Source of the DNA: Escherichia phage Lw1
Strand: one strand, 5' to 3'
DNA length: 64,000 bases
Sequence record: KC801932
Under the pieces are notes generated by a model that did not search any database, had not been told where the DNA came from, and worked only from the letters and a program-made list of their open reading frames with translations. The position numbers were made by a program, and so were the translations under genes. Of this stretch, positions 3,466 to 46,938 are shown in pieces. Within the stretch, counting starts at the first letter, position 1; each line of letters begins with the position of its first letter.

Positions 3466-4125
3466 TTAAAAGTTAAATACATTCAGCACGTCAGTTTTCA
3501 ATTCACCAAGCGTACCATTATTTAGGATGATAATATCGTTTGGTTGGGGTTTCAATCCTTTCTCAGTTGAATGGCTATCGTCTTCCCCAGTTTCGCGTTC
3601 GATGAATACAAATTTAGTCCCGAACTTGCTCAGGTATTTATATTCATGTTTTTGTCGAACGTCTGTAATGATAAAGTGATCTTTATCGGATTTCAAGATT
3701 TTCTTCAATACAATGTCAGTCCATACAGAATCGTTCTCATTGCAAACGATGTCAGTACCGAAAACCTGCATCAAACGGCGTATTGTCCAGGGATGTTTGT
3801 TTGTTTGGCAAATTTCATACGCGATGATATCAGCATTATTAAGCCAGTACCCGCGTTTAGTCAACGATTCAATGCCATTAGCAAACAGCATACGCGCACC
3901 TTCGTTAGACATCAACAGGGGTGCTTCCCGATCCCCTGAATAGAATGGGTTTGTTTTAGAGAGTTCTCGCAGATAGCGATCCCCTGATGCAGACATTCCA
4001 TTTCTCAGGATACTCTTTATTTCATCAGCAAGCGCGATTGCTTCAACGTTCTGATAGTTATCCAAAACGAATTGAGAAACGGTGTCTTTACCTGTTCTCT
4101 TTTTTCCGCAAATACCATAAATCAT
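3466..4125 (-). CDS. 1: deoxynucleoside monophosphate kinase (gp1)
   Basis: P-loop GKKRTGKDT, RRLMQVFGTD and DVRQKHE motifs shared with T4 gp1; synteny. Confidence 0.85.
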   Translation of the reverse strand: MIYGICGKKRTGKDTVSQFVLDNYQNVEAIALADEIKSILRNGMSASGDRYLRELSKTNPFYSGDREAPLLMSNEGARMLFANGIESLTKRGYWLNNADIIAYEICQTNKHPWTIRRLMQVFGTDIVCNENDSVWTDIVLKKILKSDKDHFIITDVRQKHEYKYLSKFGTKFVFIERETGEDDSHSTEKGLKPQPNDIIILNNGTLGELKTDVLNVFNF

Positions 4126-4661
4126 GATTCTTTTTTCCGTGGAGTCGGCACGAGTACCTTTCCGTCTATCTCAATTTCCATATGTGCGAAGTTGAACATA
4201 GCCATACAGGAAACGGCTTCATCCGAGTCATTAGTGTACATAAGCTCAAGCTCTCCCAGGTTGGAGGGCCAAGCACCATAAAAGCGAAATGTCGCCACAG
4301 TTTTTGATTGCGAGTTATCCAGGATGTGTAAAGCCATTGCCTGTTGTGGTTCACTCCATCGAATTGAATCGAAGGTGTTAAAATCACAGGTTCCAAGCAT
4401 CCACAGGTAAACACCCAGATACGAACGCAATTCTTCATCAACAGCAAAACGGATAGTCAACGGATCGAACTCCATTGCAGATCCAGGGATTTTCCCACGG
4501 ATCATAGGGTTCAATGGTACGTCCGTAATTGGAATGTTGACAGAAGGTAGTGTAACACCCTGAATTTGTAGTTTCAACCCTTTCATATAATCATTATCAG
4601 GAATATCTAACATAAAGTTAGTTGGTGAAATCTGGTTCAGGATCATAGCAGTAGTGTTCAT
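4122..4661 (-). CDS. 3: tail completion / sheath stabilizer protein gp3-like
   Basis: 179 aa, position between gene 1 and gene 2 as in T4; GGAGA SD before ATG 4661. Confidence 0.6.
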   Translation of the reverse strand: MNTTAMILNQISPTNFMLDIPDNDYMKGLKLQIQGVTLPSVNIPITDVPLNPMIRGKIPGSAMEFDPLTIRFAVDEELRSYLGVYLWMLGTCDFNTFDSIRWSEPQQAMALHILDNSQSKTVATFRFYGAWPSNLGELELMYTNDSDEAVSCMAMFNFAHMEIEIDGKVLVPTPRKKES

Positions 4662-4698
4662 TAATGATCTCCATTTTGTAGATATTTATGTAGACCGT

Positions 4699-4860
4699 GA
4701 GCGAAGCGAACACACGAACGAAGTGAGTGTTTTTAACTCAACTACATAATTATATATTTATATTTTATATATAGAGAAAAATGTAGTTTTTGGTATGGTT
4801 TTTAACCAACTGTAAACTATCCGTCTTCGCTTCGCTTGACGGAACTCGCTTCGCTCGTGA
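4699..4860. repeat. ~140-bp dispersed repeat, copy 1 (AT-rich core with internal hairpin aactacat/atgtagtt, flanked by GC-rich inverted repeats gagcgaagcga / tcgcttcgctc)
   Basis: Near-identical to 39685..39849 (core aactacataattatat...agagaaaatgtagtttttggtatggtttttaaccaactgtaaactatccgtcttcgcttcgct) with a few indels. Confidence 0.85.
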
Positions 4861-4885
4861 TCTTGAAAAACTATTTGACCCTTTC

Positions 4886-4893
4886 AATAAATA
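4886..4893 (+). promoter_or_regulatory. late-promoter-like box AATAAATA (7/8 to T4 TATAAATA) followed by 8-bp palindrome ataggtat/atacctat
   Basis: Located ~40 nt upstream of internal-protein ATG 4932. Confidence 0.3.
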
Positions 4894-4931
4894 GGTATAT
4901 CATACCTATACTTTCAAAAGAGATTGAAAAC

Positions 4932-5717
4932 ATGAAATCATTCAAAGAACTACTGTCTGAATCTGTTCAGACCAAAAAATTTGCTAAAACTGTTGATCTG
5001 GTTGACCGTGGTAATGCTTCAAAAGGTCAGATCGGTTTCCTGCACTTTGCACACGGTGCTGATTACGATGTGTATGCGCCGGACTCTCACGATCTCGCCT
5101 ACTTCGGTAAAGGTGTTGTTCGCCTGAAAGGTAAAACCACTGGTAAAACTCAGGCTGCATATGTTGACTGGGCGAAAGGTACGGTTTCTTTCTATAGCGG
5201 CGATCCGGCAGATGACCTGAAATTCGACAAGCCAGCGAAATTCAAAGGCGCTTCCCTGTACAAAGAAGCCGAAGAAAATCTGGATCTGTATAATCAGTTA
5301 GCGGAAGACTTCGAAATTGATGTACCGATGGATGAAGCACTGGTGAAAGGTAAGGTGTACAAGCTCCCAAGCAACGATATGCGCTTGCTGTATACCGGAC
5401 GTACCAAAAACAAGCCTACAGGTGAATACGCTGTGTTTACGGTTGTAGATGCCTCCGGTAAGCCTCGTCTGGTATCGGGTAAACGATTTACCCAGGAATA
5501 CAAAGGCGATATGCTGTCTAAACTGGTTCTCGCTGAATCGGAAGATCTGAACGAGGCCGCTAAAGGCATTCGCGAAAAAGTTATTGCGGTGTTGGTGAAG
5601 CGCGGGTTTAACGAAAAAGATGCAGAAAAGATGGTTGATAAAAACCTAAAAGATGCGATGAAAGTTCGCCCTGGTGCAACTCCAGGAAAACTAGCGGAAA
5701 TCGTGAGCACCTTGTAA
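4932..5717 (+). CDS. internal head protein with capsid targeting sequence (IPIII-like, lysine-rich)
   Basis: N-terminus MKSFKELLSE matches T4 CTS consensus MKTYQEFIAE (gp21 protease-cleaved leader); basic K-rich body; start at ATG 4932 rather than ORF-track 4836. Confidence 0.65.
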   Translation: MKSFKELLSESVQTKKFAKTVDLVDRGNASKGQIGFLHFAHGADYDVYAPDSHDLAYFGKGVVRLKGKTTGKTQAAYVDWAKGTVSFYSGDPADDLKFDKPAKFKGASLYKEAEENLDLYNQLAEDFEIDVPMDEALVKGKVYKLPSNDMRLLYTGRTKNKPTGEYAVFTVVDASGKPRLVSGKRFTQEYKGDMLSKLVLAESEDLNEAAKGIREKVIAVLVKRGFNEKDAEKMVDKNLKDAMKVRPGATPGKLAEIVSTL

Positions 5718-5721
5718 AAAT

Positions 5722-5753
5722 AAAGCCCCTTCCTTTCGGTTGGGGCTTTTTTT
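5722..5753. terminator. rho-independent terminator between convergent genes
   Basis: aaagccccttcctttcggttggggcttt + T-run; identical 28-nt sequence recurs at 40986..41013. Confidence 0.7.
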
Positions 5754-6606
5754 AATATCGGTTCCAAACTTTTTTCGCGCTGTATGGTTTTCCTTTCGAC
5801 TGGAAAGCCTGTGTAGGCAACCAAACTGCTTTCGCCCAGTCTTTTGGGGCTATCTCTGCAAGAGGTGATCGCAGGTGCGCAGGTAAGTATGCTTTGATCA
5901 TTTGATCTGCACCGCGCATCCCTTTCACGTTGTTCCAGTTGATTTTCAATCTGGTTTTGTTTGAAAGGCGATCTGTTGAACCATAACCACGTTTCAACAG
6001 TTCTTCTAAAAACTCTTGACGGGCTTTAGGTGGCGCATAGTGCAAGTTCAAACCGTACAGAACAACGTTACCCGCTTTAGAACGTCCTGAACCCAGGAAG
6101 ATGATTAGCGGGAACCGATCCCAGTATGGTAAGGTGTCTTTATATTTCGCGTCATACACGAACGTATACAGGCGACCTGTTGCTGGTTTCGCTACCCTGT
6201 GCGTTTTGATGCTGGTTTTGATGAAGTCACCAAACCAATCGGTTGAATCCTTTTGACGTTTCGCAGCAGAAACACCAACTGTAATTTTCCGTAAACTATT
6301 TCGGAAGTCGTTGATGATGTCAACTGTATGTTTTTTGCGATAGTCATTGCGTTTTCGTCGGGCTTCGGTTTCTGCTGTACGTCGCGAGATTTCATCATCA
6401 ATCTGCTGTTTATAGCGGTGCATAGACTTTGTGAACGTTGCGTATGCAATCCCGTTTTCGTCCGCGAATTTTTTGGCTGTCATGCCTTTTAATTTTGCGC
6501 GTCTGAATTTAACACCCAGTTCAACCCATTCACCAAGTTTTCGCTTCGGTGGCGGTTTCGGCTTATCTTCTTCTGCGATGATCTCAAACTCAAATATAAA
6601 ACTCAT
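5752..6606 (-). CDS. 2: DNA end protector protein gp2-like
   Basis: 284 aa basic protein in T4 gp2 position (between gp3 and gp4); GGAGGG SD. Confidence 0.6.
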   Translation of the reverse strand: MSFIFEFEIIAEEDKPKPPPKRKLGEWVELGVKFRRAKLKGMTAKKFADENGIAYATFTKSMHRYKQQIDDEISRRTAETEARRKRNDYRKKHTVDIINDFRNSLRKITVGVSAAKRQKDSTDWFGDFIKTSIKTHRVAKPATGRLYTFVYDAKYKDTLPYWDRFPLIIFLGSGRSKAGNVVLYGLNLHYAPPKARQEFLEELLKRGYGSTDRLSNKTRLKINWNNVKGMRGADQMIKAYLPAHLRSPLAEIAPKDWAKAVWLPTQAFQSKGKPYSAKKVWNRY

Positions 6607-6627
6607 AATTCCCTCCGTTTAGGGTAT

Positions 6628-7095
6628 TTATTGCCCTTTCCATCCAAATACACGTTTCAACGTGTCTTCTGTGATGATCTTAAACTCCCAGCCCTTTTGT
6701 TTTGCTGCTGCATTAGCGGCTTTCCATTTGTCAATGTTTACTGCATAAGTATACAGCGCATCAACAAATTTCTTTTTGTTGTGAACGTTGTTATTCGCTG
6801 GTTTCGGTGGTGGCAATGTTTCTTTCATCGGTTTGACTTCCCATAGGTAGGTCACTCCGTTATCCATTTCAACATAAAAATCCATGAAGTAACGCCGTCT
6901 TTTACCGTCTGCGTTGCTGAAATAGGGGATAACAACCTCTTCACTGTTCCAGCGCTTTACATGCGGGTTTCGATCAAGCCAGTTCATAATATATTTTTCC
7001 CAGCTTGAACGATACGTTATCTTTCGGGGATCGCCTTTATATTTTGTGATGTTCTGGGGCATAAAAGACCCCTTGTACGTCTGTCTTCCAGCCAT
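6628..7095 (-). CDS. 4: head completion protein gp4
   Basis: MAGR..YKG N-terminus and size match T4 gp4; synteny next to gp53. Confidence 0.65.
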   Translation of the reverse strand: MAGRQTYKGSFMPQNITKYKGDPRKITYRSSWEKYIMNWLDRNPHVKRWNSEEVVIPYFSNADGKRRRYFMDFYVEMDNGVTYLWEVKPMKETLPPPKPANNNVHNKKKFVDALYTYAVNIDKWKAANAAAKQKGWEFKIITEDTLKRVFGWKGQ

Positions 7096-9458: not shown

Positions 9459-11531
9459 ATGATCATGGATTATGAAACGATAATTGATGGAATTATGCAA
9501 AATTTTCAGCATCCTTGTGATGCTGAAATACCTGCTGGATCGTACAGACGTATTATCTGGCAGGGACATACAGAAGACTACCCCGCTGTTGGGGTAGAAT
9601 GGGATACTGAAATCATTCCGATCGGGACGCATCTTTACACGCAATCCCCGTTCGGACAGAAAAGCGATCCGCTTCCGGTAGTCAACTCCCCAGGAACCGA
9701 TCCAGGAACTGGGGAAGCAACCGGGATTCTGGTAGAGAAGATTGGTTATTATTTCACCACACAACAGGAAATTGACGATTATATCACTTCTATTGGTGCA
9801 ACGAAACTAACTGGTAACGATTGGTACGGCGCGGATCTGACAAAAGCAAACCTGTTTAAAAATCCGGGGGAACTCGCAATGTATAAAGTCGAGAACTCTG
9901 GTGGTTATCTGATGACTTCTGGACCTCGCTGTGATCCACGTATCAGACAGGCTTATAACGTCGATACAGGGGCGTTTACGAGCATTGATTACGATTGGAA
10001 TGGTAATCGTATTGCTTACATGAAACATGACGACACAGGGGCGCACAATTGCAAATACGTAGGGATGATGGTCAACACCAACGCAGATACGAGCATTCCT
10101 CCGGTTCCTCCGGCTATGCCGTCTGTGTATGGTGCGTTACCGAGCGAAATTTCAATGATGCGATCTGGTTTGGGTTGTGTTCCGGCGACCGTTGGGTTTG
10201 CCTACACAAACATCAGTGATGCGATGCTCGAAGCATGGAACGAAACCAGGAAATCATTCAAACTTGTATTTGACATGCTTTCTGGGATCACTAAATCGGG
10301 TTCTGGTGGTATTTCTACAATGTATGATGGTTTGTGTATCGCGATGGAAGAAATTGCAGCAGGTGCTCTTGCTTTATCCCAGCAAGCATGGCAAGCCGCA
10401 ATGAAAGTGTTTCGTGATGTTATTTCATCAGCATTGAACATTGTAGGTGGTGCGTGGGACATGATAAAAAGTTTTCTGCCTACGGTGACCATTATGGGTG
10501 TGTCGATAAACATATACGATCTGATTTTTGGTGATAACTCTGTTCAGACACTAAAAGACGCATTTCAGGCAATCATTGATTCTGGTGTACAAACATATGA
10601 AGCAATCATAAACGAAATATATGCCACTATAGGCAGTGTTTACAATTATGCGGTAGAATATGTCAAGGCTGGCGCTAGAGACCTCGTAGACGCGTGTAGT
10701 GCGTTATTTGATTGGTGTATTACTATGTTCCAGAATGGTTGTGTGGCACTGGTTGATTTATACGGAAGGATCATGCAGATCTGGTCAATGCCTCCGATGG
10801 TTCCAAACCCGTTATGGGCTGCTGTTTTGGCTATCAGAAACATCCTTATGCAGATCAAACCTCTTGATATAATTTTAAGCGGTAACTTTCCTGGTTTTAC
10901 TGCGATGGACTTGTACCAATGGGCGCAAGAAAAAGTCAAGGAATTTATTGATCAATCATACGAACAGATACGCGGATATTATGAACAGGCTAAAAATCTT
11001 TACAACATGCTAACATCGCAGACTCAGGAAAGGGATGCAATAAAACGTAAATTTGACCAGTATCTTAACTGGATGTGGGGTGCTGTTACTGATGCTGCTA
11101 CCGCTGCATATCAGGCCGCGTTGGACGCTGCAAACGAAGCAATCGAACAAACAAAGGCAATGATAGATGGTGTTAAAGCACAGATAGCCGCTCTACAGGA
11201 CGCGTTGAAAGACACGTACAGTCTCGCAATGGAAGAGTTAAAGAAACTGCCTATCATGCAGCAGATTAACGAATTCTTAGGCTACTGTGGTATTGCTTTC
11301 GATGACTTACTGAAAACGTATGATAACGCGGTTACGGGCGCAAAATCCCTGTATAAAAACTTTGTGGACAGTTCCCGATCGTTCAAGGATACCTGCAAGG
11401 TGATATACAACCAGATATGTACGCTGGCACTAAGTAAGGTGACTCAATACGTGAATAAACTGTTGTCTCTAATCGGACTGATGATCAATTTCGCATCAAT
11501 CAATATTTGCGTTCCGATGATTCAACTATAA
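9459..11531 (+). CDS. large hypothetical protein (690 aa) between gp5 and gp6; helical, hydrophobic segments, C-terminal coiled-coil
   Basis: Long uninterrupted ORF tightly coupled to gp5 stop; no recognisable catalytic motif by eye. Confidence 0.8.
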   Translation: MIMDYETIIDGIMQNFQHPCDAEIPAGSYRRIIWQGHTEDYPAVGVEWDTEIIPIGTHLYTQSPFGQKSDPLPVVNSPGTDPGTGEATGILVEKIGYYFTTQQEIDDYITSIGATKLTGNDWYGADLTKANLFKNPGELAMYKVENSGGYLMTSGPRCDPRIRQAYNVDTGAFTSIDYDWNGNRIAYMKHDDTGAHNCKYVGMMVNTNADTSIPPVPPAMPSVYGALPSEISMMRSGLGCVPATVGFAYTNISDAMLEAWNETRKSFKLVFDMLSGITKSGSGGISTMYDGLCIAMEEIAAGALALSQQAWQAAMKVFRDVISSALNIVGGAWDMIKSFLPTVTIMGVSINIYDLIFGDNSVQTLKDAFQAIIDSGVQTYEAIINEIYATIGSVYNYAVEYVKAGARDLVDACSALFDWCITMFQNGCVALVDLYGRIMQIWSMPPMVPNPLWAAVLAIRNILMQIKPLDIILSGNFPGFTAMDLYQWAQEKVKEFIDQSYEQIRGYYEQAKNLYNMLTSQTQERDAIKRKFDQYLNWMWGAVTDAATAAYQAALDAANEAIEQTKAMIDGVKAQIAALQDALKDTYSLAMEELKKLPIMQQINEFLGYCGIAFDDLLKTYDNAVTGAKSLYKNFVDSSRSFKDTCKVIYNQICTLALSKVTQYVNKLLSLIGLMINFASINICVPMIQL

Positions 11532-11534
11532 ATA
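11527..11534 (+). promoter_or_regulatory. T4-type late promoter box TATAAATA
   Basis: Exact TATAAATA ~20 nt upstream of gp6 ATG. Confidence 0.45.
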
Positions 11535-11554
11535 CCCGATAAAGAGGGGTAATA

Positions 11555-30354: not shown

Positions 30355-32346
30355 ATGGCTTTACAATCTCCAGGTATTGAAACCAAAGAAACATCGGTAC
30401 AATCTACCGTTGTTCGAAATTCAACTGGTCGCGCTGCCATTGTTGGTAAATTTTCATGGGGGCCAGCTTATCAGATCCGTCAGATTTCTAACGAAGTCGA
30501 ACTGGTAAACTATTTTGGTTCCCCAGACAACCTAACCGCTGATTATTTCATGAGTGCTGTTAACTTCTTGCAGTACGGTAATGATCTCCGTGTGGTTCGT
30601 GTTGTCGATAAAGATGCCGCAAAAAACGCAAGCGCAATTTTTAACCAGATCAAAACAACCATTGCTTCGCAGGGTTCCAACTACACCGTTGGCGACGTAA
30701 TTAAGGTAAAATATAGCAACAACGTAGTTGAAGAAAATGGTAAAGTGTCAAAAGTTGACAGTAACGGCAAAATCCTTGCGGTAGTCATCCCAAGCGAAAA
30801 AATCGTTGCTCGTGCAAAACAGATCGGGACTTATCCAGATATTTCTACTGGCTGGACTACTGAAATCGTTTCTCAGTCTTCTGGTGTGTCTGCGTCAATC
30901 ACGATCGATGGTATCGAAAGCGATTCTGGTATCACTCTGCTGAACCTGGATATTGCTAAAGAAACCATTCAAGGAACTGCGTTCCAGACACTGACCCAGA
31001 AATACCAGATCCCATCTGTTGTGGCTCTGTATCCTGGCGAACTGGGTTCTACTGTAGAGGTGGAGATTATCTCCAAAGCTGCTTACGATTCTGGCGCTAT
31101 GATTTCCGGTTTCCCTTCTGGGATCTCCGTTAAAAACAGCGGTCGCTCTGTGATGACTTATGGTCCACAGACCGAAAACCAGTACGCTTTTGTTGTGCGT
31201 CGTGGTGGTATTGTACAAGAATCTTTCATCGTGTCAACAGAAAAAACCGACAAAGATATCTACGGCGTAAACATCTATATGGATGACTTTTTCGCTAACG
31301 GTGGTTCACAGTACGTATTCGGTACTTCTATGAACTGGCCTAAAGGCTTCTCCGGTATTCTAGAATTTGGTGGTGGTTTGTCCTCAAACGACACCGTAGG
31401 CGCTGATGAACTGATGACTGGTTGGGATATGTTCGCTGATCGCGAAGCCCTTCACGTCCCGCTGCTGATTGCTGGTGCTTGTGCTGGTGAAACCGTAGAA
31501 GTAATGTCTACTGTTCAGAAGCATGTTATCTCGATCGGTGACGAACGTCAGGATTGTACTGTGTTTGTATCGCCTCCGCGTTCTCTTCTGGTGAACATTC
31601 CTCTTGCTCAGGCAGTGGATAACATCGTTGAATGGCGTATGGGATATACAATCAGTGGTAACACTCCGGTAGACAACAACCTGAACGTAAGTTCAAGCTA
31701 TGGCTTCCTGGATGGTAACTATAAATATCAGTATGATAAATACAATGACGTGAACCGCTGGGTTCCGCTGGCAGGTGATATCGCTGGCCTGTGTGTTTAC
31801 ACTGATAGCGTTGCGCAACCGTGGATGTCTCCGGCTGGTTACAACCGTGGTCAGATCCGTAACTGCATTAAACTGGCTATTGAACCGCGTACTGCACACC
31901 GTGACGCGATGTATCAAGTTCAGATTAACCCGGTAACAGGTTTTGCAGGTGGCTCTGGTTTCGTTCTGTTCGGTGATAAAACACTGACTAATGTTCCGAG
32001 TCCGTTCGATCGTATCAACGTTCGTCGCTTGTTCAACATGATCAAGAAAGACATCGGGGATAACGCGAAATACAAACTGTTTGAAAACAACGACGATTTC
32101 ACCCGTGCTTCGTTCCGTATGGATACTGGTCAGTACATGACGAATATTCGTGCGCTGGGTGGTTGCTATGATTACCGTGTAATCTGCGATACCACGAACA
32201 ACACGCCGGATGTAATTGATCGTAACGAGTTTGTAGCGACCATTTACGTGAAACCGCCACGTTCTATCAACTACATCACTCTGAACTTCGTAGCAACGTC
32301 TACAGGCGCAGATTTCGATGAATTGGTAGGGCCACAAGCCGTATAA
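30355..32346 (+). CDS. 18: tail sheath protein gp18
   Basis: 663 aa, strong similarity pattern to T4 gp18. Confidence 0.95.
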   Translation: MALQSPGIETKETSVQSTVVRNSTGRAAIVGKFSWGPAYQIRQISNEVELVNYFGSPDNLTADYFMSAVNFLQYGNDLRVVRVVDKDAAKNASAIFNQIKTTIASQGSNYTVGDVIKVKYSNNVVEENGKVSKVDSNGKILAVVIPSEKIVARAKQIGTYPDISTGWTTEIVSQSSGVSASITIDGIESDSGITLLNLDIAKETIQGTAFQTLTQKYQIPSVVALYPGELGSTVEVEIISKAAYDSGAMISGFPSGISVKNSGRSVMTYGPQTENQYAFVVRRGGIVQESFIVSTEKTDKDIYGVNIYMDDFFANGGSQYVFGTSMNWPKGFSGILEFGGGLSSNDTVGADELMTGWDMFADREALHVPLLIAGACAGETVEVMSTVQKHVISIGDERQDCTVFVSPPRSLLVNIPLAQAVDNIVEWRMGYTISGNTPVDNNLNVSSSYGFLDGNYKYQYDKYNDVNRWVPLAGDIAGLCVYTDSVAQPWMSPAGYNRGQIRNCIKLAIEPRTAHRDAMYQVQINPVTGFAGGSGFVLFGDKTLTNVPSPFDRINVRRLFNMIKKDIGDNAKYKLFENNDDFTRASFRMDTGQYMTNIRALGGCYDYRVICDTTNNTPDVIDRNEFVATIYVKPPRSINYITLNFVATSTGADFDELVGPQAV

Positions 32347-39635: not shown

Positions 39636-39684
39636 TCAAGTTTTGAGAAGACCATTATAATAACAAAGATCAAGAAGGTCAAAC

Positions 39685-39849
39685 GAGCGAAGCGAGTTTT
39701 CACGAACGAAGTGAGTGATGGGTACTACTAACTACATAATTATATTTTTATATTTTATATATAGAGAAAATGTAGTTTTTGGTATGGTTTTTAACCAACT
39801 GTAAACTATCCGTCTTCGCTTCGCTCATTCATGTACTCACTTCGTTCGT
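39685..39849. repeat. ~140-bp dispersed repeat, copy 2 (same core and GC-rich inverted flanks as 4699..4860)
   Basis: Direct comparison with copy 1; flanking inverted repeats acgaacgaagtgagt / actcacttcgttcgt. Confidence 0.85.
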
Positions 39850-39853
39850 AGAT

Positions 39854-41017: not shown

Positions 41018-41248
41018 TTAAAACTTCTCTTCTTCTCCGGTTTCGAGTTCGGCTTTCAGTTCTTCTCGCCGTCCCTTGATCGCGTCACGCATTGAAATAT
41101 CATCGGATGCTGCGACCTCGACTTCTTTCACGCGTGTGTTGTAATACTTTTCAAGTTCTTTCAAACCGTCCAGTGTCCGGCACGAAGCAACCTTATTCAT
41201 GAAATCATCAATCGCGGCTTCGTTTACAAATTTGGTAAAACTTTTCAT
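41018..41248 (-). CDS. uvsW.1: UvsW.1 small helicase-associated protein
   Basis: 76 aa directly downstream of uvsW on the same strand. Confidence 0.75.
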   Translation of the reverse strand: MKSFTKFVNEAAIDDFMNKVASCRTLDGLKELEKYYNTRVKEVEVAASDDISMRDAIKGRREELKAELETGEEEKF

Positions 41249-46104: not shown

Positions 46105-46938
46105 TCAACCCCATGTATCGGTTTTAGGTGCGTATGCTGCAACTTTAGCCACTAATTCCTTATCAAGCTGATCAATGGATTTCTGCGGTTTGCCTTTTGC
46201 CTTAACTTTGATGTAATTAGACTTGACAACGAACATACCGCCTTTGTCGGATTTCTTAACTTCGCTATCAATACCAACTTTGTTAAAGCTGATCCAGATG
46301 TCACCATCCATGTACTGTTTCAGAGAATCGCCCATGTTAAGGATCTTAGCCATAGTAAGCGCGGCCCCTTCGTGGGTATCCATGAGGATCTCTTTTGGAA
46401 CAACACGGTCGCGTTTCAGGTTCTGCTGCATGGCAATATGAACATCGTTCATTACCCAAACGATATGGATGTTTTCTTTCTTGTACCCCAGCGCTTCAAC
46501 ATCACGGGCGATACTTGCCAGTTTGCTCATGCTTTTCAGGGTTACGTCAAAAATCAGGTTTGGTTTGCGATCTTCCGGTGCTGCTGCGATACCAGCATAA
46601 ACACGCGCCTGGTTTTTGTTTGATACGTTGAAAACGTCTGCGATCACATGGTGAAGTGTTGCAACGTTATCAGGGTTTTTCAGGTTCATTGTTTTAACGT
46701 CATGACCTGTTTTTGCTTTAATTTCTGCTGCTAGTTTGGTGCTACCCATTACCAGCTTTTTCAATGCGTCAACGTCCAGTGTGATCCCTTCGATGCCTAA
46801 CAGCTTTTCGAGAGTGAAGCCTTTACCGGAACCCGCACCGCCAGCCAGGATCACGACCTGACCGAATTTCTGATAAGCCTTACCGCCGAAGGTAATCAGC
46901 GCTTCATCAAGGCTCACAAAGTCTTTGAATGATTTCAT
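46105..46938 (-). CDS. protein with CTS-like N-terminus and glycine-rich nucleotide-binding loop (candidate packaged P-loop enzyme)
   Basis: N-terminus MKSFKDFVSLDEA resembles capsid targeting sequence; VVILAGGAGSGKGFT loop; GGAG SD. Confidence 0.6.
   Translation of the reverse strand: MKSFKDFVSLDEALITFGGKAYQKFGQVVILAGGAGSGKGFTLEKLLGIEGITLDVDALKKLVMGSTKLAAEIKAKTGHDVKTMNLKNPDNVATLHHVIADVFNVSNKNQARVYAGIAAAPEDRKPNLIFDVTLKSMSKLASIARDVEALGYKKENIHIVWVMNDVHIAMQQNLKRDRVVPKEILMDTHEGAALTMAKILNMGDSLKQYMDGDIWISFNKVGIDSEVKKSDKGGMFVVKSNYIKVKAKGKPQKSIDQLDKELVAKVAAYAPKTDTWG

Follow-up and report, generated by a model that had tools for sequence, protein, structure and literature searches.

A candidate capsid-targeted internal head protein encoded between genes 3 and 2 of an RB16-like phage

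The gene between genes 3 and 2

The DNA analysed here, referred to as the window, is a stretch of 64,000 nucleotides from Escherichia phage Lw1 (record KC801932) and is RB16-like Pseudotevenvirus DNA. Between the genes for gp3 and gp2 it carries an open reading frame (ORF) on the plus strand, running from an ATG at 4932 to a TAA at 5715-5717 and encoding 261 amino acids with the N-terminus MKSFKELLSE. The reading favoured here, with moderate confidence, is that the ORF codes for a T4-type internal head protein, led by a capsid-targeting sequence, which would be loaded on the prohead core, trimmed, kept with the DNA and injected. The product is identical to RB16p185 (HM134276, 101028-101813), which is labelled "conserved hypothetical phage protein", and over the 2.6 kb that surround the ORF the identity is 99.3% with Escherichia phage RB16 and 99.5% with Citrobacter phage KKP_3664. 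A TTG start at 4836, listed by the ORF tool, was dropped for the ATG at 4932 because the latter agrees with the RB16 annotation and with the conserved leader. The features of the locus are as follows.

4932-5717, plus strand: coding sequence, 261 amino acids, 28.9 kDa precursor; equals RB16p185; member of PHROG 7322 (unknown function)
4932-4961, plus strand: putative capsid-targeting propeptide, residues 1-10, MKSFKELLSE, with a predicted gp21 cut after E10 (L-S-E↓S)
4697-4862, no strand: palindromic intergenic repeat of ~165 bp with GC-rich inverted arms (GAGCGAAGCGA / TCGCTTCGCTC and CGAACGAAGTGAG) and an AT-rich core
4755-4762, minus strand: late-promoter consensus TATAAATA, inside the repeat and facing gp3
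4875-4903, plus strand: sigma70-like promoter, TTGACC-17 nt-TATCAT, scan match 10/12
4887-4894, plus strand: late-promoter-like element AATAAATA, 7/8 of TATAAATA, inside the spacer of the sigma70-like promoter
4891-4909, plus strand: small hairpin ATAGGTAT-ATC-ATACCTAT, centred on the -10 box
5722-5749, no strand: bidirectional intrinsic terminator shared with the convergent gp2 gene, -17.7 / -16.4 kcal/mol, z about -3.2 / -3.6, with a T-run on each strand
3466-4125, minus strand: gp1, dNMP kinase
4122-4661, minus strand: gp3
5752-6606, minus strand: gp2, DNA end protector, convergent with the ORF
6628-7095, minus strand: gp4
beyond gp4 in the list of neighbours, plus strand: gp53 and gp5

An initial annotation of this DNA had placed a gene with this N-terminus at 4932-5717, described it as the only plus-strand gene in its neighbourhood, framed by a repeat and a terminator, and remarked that T4 has no such gene at its gene 3/gene 2 junction. 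All of this is borne out: the ORF is real, gp1 and gp3 on one side and gp2 and gp4 on the other are on the minus strand, the ~165-bp repeat and the bidirectional hairpin enclose it, and the T4 junction is a 106-bp gap without a gene. The description of the gene as novel and as inserted did not survive. Homologues were found by tblastn in 177 phage records, nearly all labelled hypothetical, so that any novelty is limited to annotation. The carriers include Pseudotevenvirus, Slopekvirus KP15/KP27, Yersinia phage JC221, Pantoea phage Phynn and many Klebsiella, Enterobacter, Cronobacter and Citrobacter phages. The slot between gp3 and gp2 holds the gene, on the same strand, in all genomes and metagenomic contigs examined; judged from this distribution, the gene goes back to the ancestor of the whole clade of RB43/RB16, KP15/KP27, JC221 and Phynn and is not an insertion.

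The family is nevertheless narrow, with 11 representatives from a profile search of 1.8 billion representative proteins. Sequence searches of Pfam, NCBIfam and the PDB with the ORF, the family alignment and the variants that carry C-terminal modules D and E (described below) gave nothing above threshold, and PHROGs returned only the unknown-function families 7322 and 9411. A structure search of BFVD found orthologues and one uncharacterised protein of Vibrio phage nt-1 only. The paralogue search gave no second copy of the family in the window; the second match seen in many genomes is a 37-residue match of another module, C, to RB16p016.

The ORF lies inside the head and tail morphogenesis block, adjoining the gene for gp2, which binds and protects the DNA ends, and at about 2 kb or less from the position of ipI in T4 (order ipI-57B-57A-1-3-2). 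In the T-even phages the genes for internal proteins (ip genes) lie beside 57B and between e and denV. These loci are not used here: the ORF, located between genes 3 and 2, is separated from 57B by three genes (57A, 1 and 3), and the position beside 57B or e is a trait of the T-even loci rather than of the mechanism. In codon adaptation to the major virion genes the ORF ranks 28 of 248 ORFs, near gp22 and wac. The RB16 annotation lists no internal protein.

The -35 and -10 boxes of the sigma70-like promoter keep their positions (TTGAyC/TTTACC and TATCAT/TACTAT) in RB43, KP27 and two metagenomic relatives, with the remaining spacer region diverging. In the KP27 record the depositors marked two promoters ahead of the gene, one of sigma70 consensus and one middle promoter, and a terminator on both strands at the same place as that in the list. 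Within the diverging spacer, TAAATA is found at exactly the same position in five of five lineages, and one metagenomic relative, L013, has a perfect TATAAATA there. For comparison, the late genes gp3 and gp24 of RB16 are preceded by CATAAATA, with NATAAATA shared, CATAAATA standing 29 nt upstream of the gp3 start, and an exact-match scan for the late consensus found 10 sites in the window against 2.8 expected. We read the arrangement at the ORF as a probable overlapping early and late promoter. As both a sigma70-like and a late-type element are found, the ORF would be transcribed from its own combined promoter and the protein would probably be made before and during head assembly. The T4 internal proteins are likewise made before and during head assembly, and ipI, ipII and ipIII of T4 have the same layout as that seen here, a GTTTAC -35 box and then, across the -10 region, an inverted repeat.

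Two further copies of the upstream repeat were found, making three per genome, one at 39683-39850 between gp24 and uvsY, with the central 97 bp 98% identical, and one at RB16 31162-31305 between rnh and gp55. A sigma70-like promoter follows immediately after each of the three copies, i.e. ahead of the ORF, uvsY and gene 55. Both uvsY and gene 55 are pre-replicative in T4. The repeat might serve as a regulatory cassette, as an origin or as a site bound by a middle-mode activator; taken as a signal of co-regulation it points to pre-replicative expression, which would fit T4-type internal proteins and a non-packaged protein alike. Separately, the copy beside uvsY is at the position of the T4 replication origin oriF.

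Some observations on the surroundings may be recorded here. The window is without two homing-endonuclease genes of RB16, a Seg-like GIY-YIG gene in the gp2/gp4 gap (6607-6627) and a Mob-like HNH gene before gp6 (~11532-11554), which sets the source phage apart from RB16. Directly 3' of gp5 is a plus-strand ORF of 690 amino acids (9459-11531) with no T4 counterpart at that position; besides its own unknown-function family, PHROG 5296, it has a weak match to PHROG families of the tape-measure type (best E 1.4e-12). In the metagenomic relative L013, an ORF at 1739-2230, two genes past gp1 at about the 57B position, has a Pfam Acb1 domain, named for anti-CBASS nuclease proteins, an indication that the 57B-1-3-2 neighbourhood gathers counter-defence genes.

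The leader peptide and its specificity

The initial annotation also noticed that the N-terminus resembles the capsid-targeting sequence of T4, and the resemblance is found at the very residues, 4, 7, 8 and 10, that were mapped by mutagenesis. In T4 capsid targeting needs no more than the ten N-terminal residues of IPIII; residues 4 and 7 serve mainly targeting and residues 8 and 10 serve processing, and an aspartate at position 10 blocks cutting while targeting is kept (PMC9026906). The protease gp21 cuts after the glutamate of L/I-x-E. In comparison with the leader MKTYQEFIAE of IPII and IPIII, the ORF has identical M1, K2, E6 and E10 and conservative replacements at S3/T, F4/Y, L7/F and L8/I; in comparison with the IPI leader MKTFKEF, five of seven residues are identical. 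Both targeting residues, F4 and L7, are present, as is the processing motif L8-S9-E10, with Glu and not Asp at position 10. The recognition of ip genes by their leader is accepted practice (PMC12373910).

An alignment of 16 homologues showed F4, K5 and E10 to be invariant and position 7 to be L, F, Y or M in nearly all, followed by residues 11-17 which are variable and contain insertions and deletions. In the AlphaFold model the predicted local distance difference test (pLDDT) score is below 50 at residues 1-3 and 5-14, and the fold begins at about residue 20. Because a conserved decapeptide precedes variable, disordered residues, the leader appears to be a peptide appended outside the fold. 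The hydrophilic N-terminus has no hydrophobic stretch like that of a signal peptide, and this ruled out a secreted or membrane protein.

The machinery with which such a leader would work is encoded by RB16, in which gp21 (62% identity to T4), gp22 (56%), gp67 and gp68 are all present. The maturation site of gp23 is FLAE↓AEIAG in RB16 versus FLTE↓AEIGG in T4, and the gp22 N-terminus, MLKEQLLAE↓A, is conserved in RB16. On this evidence MKSFKELLSE probably acts as a capsid-targeting sequence that docks the precursor on the gp22/gp67/gp68 core during prohead formation, and gp21 would then remove it after L-S-E10. The protein has 13% lysine, and the resulting mature form would be 27.7 kDa with a net charge of +4 and an isoelectric point (pI) of 8.9. 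The earlier description of the protein as lysine-rich therefore holds for its lysine content, but as a whole the mature protein is mildly basic.

A strict 10-residue pattern for the leader matched this ORF only in the window and two ORFs in the 176.8-kb RB16 genome, the ORF itself and UvsW.1. A rough chance expectation from residue frequencies is ~1e-3 matches among ~270 proteins. A looser pattern added a few enzymes and p227 (RB16p227; 46105-46938 in the window, minus strand), a zeta-toxin-like P-loop protein of 277 amino acids (Pfam PF06414, 32.6 bits, cut-off 22.3) which starts MKSFKDFVSLDE. The first 17 nt are common to p227 and the ORF, the element AATAAATA also occurs 34 nt upstream of the p227 start, and p227 ranks 19 of 248 in codon adaptation. 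In the p227 family, which comprises 2,419 proteins in T4-type phages, the start is nearly always M-x-S-F-K-x-F...L-x-E. The same conserved start on two unrelated proteins of one phage is what a shared targeting signal predicts, and p227 is thus a candidate for a second, kinase-like, capsid-targeted protein.

Domain architecture and exchangeable modules

The initial annotation had proposed structure prediction as a check; the AlphaFold2 model (mean pLDDT 72) gave three domains, with disordered segments at residues 124-135 and 203-210, but no fold or family match that would assign a function. The parts are as follows.

4962-5306, plus strand: domain A, residues 11-125, conserved core of the family, 7-8 beta strands and then a helix, with L-A-E↓D as the linker motif at its C-terminal end
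5307-5537, plus strand: domain B, residues 126-202, a disordered acidic linker and then a small beta barrel, ending L-A-E↓S
5538-5714, plus strand: second linker, residues 203-208 (SEDLNE, containing another site, L-N-E↓A), followed by module C at residues 209-261, which forms a basic three-helix bundle of pI 9.9

A cluster of residues in domain A (H38/H41/D44/D51/H53/D54) resembled a metal site and an enzyme was considered; this was dropped because the distant members P0018 and P0020 have other residues at these positions. Domain A is also found outside the family. It is C-terminal in a 305-amino-acid protein of the Ishigurovirus Aeromonas phage avDM6 (L010 1958-2875; PHROG 18967), where a different N-terminal part and L-x-E-rich linkers precede it, and by structure it is present in a 118-amino-acid protein of Vibrio phage nt-1. 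Domain A is therefore an older module of T4-type phages.

The family contains the combinations A, A+B, A+C, A+D, A+E, A+B+C, A+B+D, A+B+D+C and A+B+E. The RB43 homologue is A+B only, and P0018 is A+B with a different C-terminal tail. Every module variant that was located is at the same locus, and the C-terminal modules C, D and E have been exchanged in situ among close relatives. Module C also occurs as a free-standing protein of 53 amino acids, RB16p016, encoded among small minus-strand ORFs close to dexA. Free-standing homologues of module D, ~60 amino acids long, were found in T1-like siphoviruses; one of them, rtp75, closes a series of small ORFs at the end of the genome of phage Rtp. Module E was found in three Klebsiella phages only. 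This turnover of C-terminal modules in situ suggests an arms-race function, for which the three T4 internal proteins, as inhibitors of distinct GmrSD enzymes (PMC12373910), offer a strong precedent.

Motifs of the type recognised by gp21 are concentrated between the domains. Four of the six [LI]-x-E motifs are in or beside the three segments with pLDDT below 50, where ~0.24 would be expected (Poisson P ~1e-4), and, as the sequences and the alignment were read, all family variants have one or two L/I-x-E motifs at each of their module junctions. The pattern suggests cleavage into modules by gp21, which besides removing the leader would probably cut the linkers after E125, E202 and E208, freeing pieces A (12.6 kDa, pI 6.8), B (8.7 kDa, pI 8.9) and C (5.7 kDa, pI 9.9). 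By analogy with T4, the pieces might remain in the head with the DNA, enter the cell alongside it and act on host targets, with domain A constant and the exchangeable C-terminal modules as the part engaged in an arms race, for anti-defence or host take-over. A more specific proposal is that the protein is a carrier polyprotein, in which domain A with its leader brings interchangeable effector modules (C, D and E) into the prohead and gp21 frees them at the L-x-E linkers. This agrees with the data but is put forward tentatively, and we consider it unlikely rather than likely. If true, products which are elsewhere made from free-standing small genes would be delivered with the DNA at time zero, and there would be a modular, protease-released system of injected effectors in T4-type phages with apparently unmodified cytosine DNA, directed at targets other than type IV restriction.

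The initial annotation had suggested an analogy with IPI* and the GmrSD type IV restriction system, and this part of it is weak. In the RB16 annotation, gene 42 (dCMP hydroxymethylase) and both the alpha- and the beta-glucosyltransferase are missing; only the a-gt.4 and a-gt.5 ORFs and several methyltransferases are listed. There is thus probably no glucosylated hydroxymethylcytosine (hmC) DNA to protect, and an enzyme of the GmrSD type is unlikely as the target.

Competing explanations and related systems

Several observations weigh against an internal head protein. The predicted mature protein is larger and less basic than the T4 IP* proteins, which are 8-20 kDa with pI 9.0-9.7. The Shine-Dalgarno sequence is weak (GAGA), and in the Slopekvirus orthologues three extra residues (MTHLKKFKEFLTE) precede the leader, with the Shine-Dalgarno sequence placed for that ATG. 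The promoter is primarily sigma70-like and has upstream of it a repeat that is common to uvsY and gene 55. The free-standing homologues of modules C and D are without the leader and fit a cytoplasmic role equally well. The leader itself has look-alikes: UvsW.1, which starts MKSFTEFVNE in RB16, is a false positive in the same genome, and NAPRTase starts MKTFNEL. Finally, a literature search for virion mass spectrometry of RB43, RB16, KP15, KP27, phiEap-3, vB_EcRAM-01, slopekviruses and karamviruses found no virion proteomics for Pseudotevenvirus or Slopekvirus; such data were found only for other genera (Jiaodavirus, Karamvirus), which are without this gene.

The UvsW.1 match was compared with T4, where the corresponding segment is internal (residue 516) in the fused UvsW of 587 amino acids, and on this comparison the likeness to the leader is coincidental. 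In view of this look-alike the leader is good evidence but not proof. In the window UvsW.1 is a separate ORF of 76 amino acids (41018-41248, minus strand) starting MKSFTKFVNE, and it provides a useful negative control for the calling of internal proteins by their leader.

The explanation that best survives beside an internal head protein is a non-packaged accessory protein of the cytoplasm, made before replication from the sigma70-like promoter for host take-over or anti-defence, with a start that resembles a capsid-targeting sequence because many proteins of these phages begin M-K-x-F-x-E-hydrophobic. We regard this as possible though doubtful. The conserved position of the promoter, the sigma70 consensus and middle promoters annotated in KP27 and the repeat common to gene 55 and uvsY are all in keeping with it, as are the homology of modules C and D to the free-standing small ORFs RB16p016 and rtp75 and the start motif on UvsW.1 and NAPRTase, proteins not expected in heads. 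Against this, the leader of the ORF is a conserved island apart from the fold whereas the motif of UvsW.1 is part of the fold, and the conserved TAAATA in the spacer is not required by a sigma70 promoter alone. The L-x-E motifs at every domain junction also count against a cytoplasmic protein, as do the location in the morphogenesis block and the codon adaptation like that of virion genes. The T4 ip genes themselves have sigma70-type promoters and therefore early expression is no argument against packaging.

It is less probable still, and in our judgement quite improbable, that the protein is packaged by its leader but is mainly a morphogenetic or DNA-condensing component of the core, like the role proposed for T4 IPIII, with no effector role after injection. 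Mutants of T4 IPIII show aberrations of head assembly and the internal proteins co-purify with gp22 (PMC9026906). RB16 has no other annotated internal proteins, so the ORF product could supply the bulk internal protein, and domain A is strongly conserved. A net charge of merely +4 would, however, make a poor counter-ion for DNA, the Shine-Dalgarno sequence is weak, and the absence of domain B from some variants and the swapping or loss of C-terminal modules (A+B only in RB43) are typical of accessory rather than structural parts. A tail completion protein, the label that the records of vB_EkoM5VN and HK6 give in this region instead of the usual 'hypothetical protein', can be set aside as highly improbable, for Pfam, PHROGs and NCBIfam gave no homology to a tail family, fold searches gave no tail-protein neighbour, and the adjoining gp3 is the genuine protein of tail completion and sheath stabilisation, for which reason the label looks misplaced.

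If the family of the ORF product and the zeta-toxin-like protein with a leader of this kind (46105-46938) are packaged, they provide the first candidates for proteins injected by the RB43/RB16 and KP15/KP27 phages. These phages, which include many that infect Klebsiella, Enterobacter and Cronobacter, have no annotated internal proteins. The swapped C-terminal modules mark parts of the protein under diversifying pressure and are possible determinants of host range. If the ORF product is not packaged, the leader rule for ip genes gives false positives outside the T-even phages.

Among systems with which the locus can be compared, the most distant is the three-helix bundle of RuvA domain III and UBA-like domains. 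Module C matches RuvA domain III weakly (hhalign probability 30%, NCBIfam E 0.078) and no RuvA domain I or II is present in the ORF product. Three-helix bundles recur widely.

The arrangement of the gene is closer to the PeSL or moron-type cassettes of T4-type phages (Arbiol et al. 2010, PMC2839356). As in these, a single ORF makes up an insulated unit with its terminator and its promoter and stem-loop, running against the direction of the neighbouring genes, and a repeated sequence is located upstream. Unlike these, the ORF keeps the same locus in all relatives examined, with shuffling limited to the 3' modules, and the 165-bp repeat is much larger than a PeSL.

The T4 Alt protein, a packaged ADP-ribosyltransferase, is similar in being larger and multi-domain; it is taken into the prohead core, trimmed by gp21 and ejected together with the DNA, and its processing takes place at both ends (PMC9026906). 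The ORF product differs from Alt in that no ADP-ribosyltransferase or other enzymatic signature was found in it and distant members have not retained the H/D-rich motif of domain A.

The closest comparison is with T4 Ip1, Ip2 and Ip3 (IPI, IPII and IPIII), which have the leader alone in common and are injected anti-restriction proteins that inhibit distinct GmrSD enzymes (PMC12373910). As all three T4 internal proteins are injected inhibitors of GmrSD, injected proteins can be placed at the front line of the arms race between phage and host. The ORF product resembles them in its 10-residue leader, with an aromatic residue at 4, a hydrophobic one at 7 and an L/I-x-E ending at 10, in being encoded by an accessory gene that looks non-essential and has its own sigma70-type promoter, with a hairpin at the -10 box, and in belonging to a polymorphic family. 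No sequence similarity to Ip1-3 was found beyond the leader, and this too is a likeness since the mature parts of Ip1-3 are themselves dissimilar. The differences are the locus, which is between genes 3 and 2 and not beside 57B or between e and denV, the larger, three-domain and less basic product with its internal L-x-E linkers, and the phage, RB16 being without an annotated pathway for hmC or its glucosylation. Leader-bearing internal proteins are a known polymorphic class of the T-even phages, to which the family described here, whose function was never annotated, would add a member from a different clade and a different locus.

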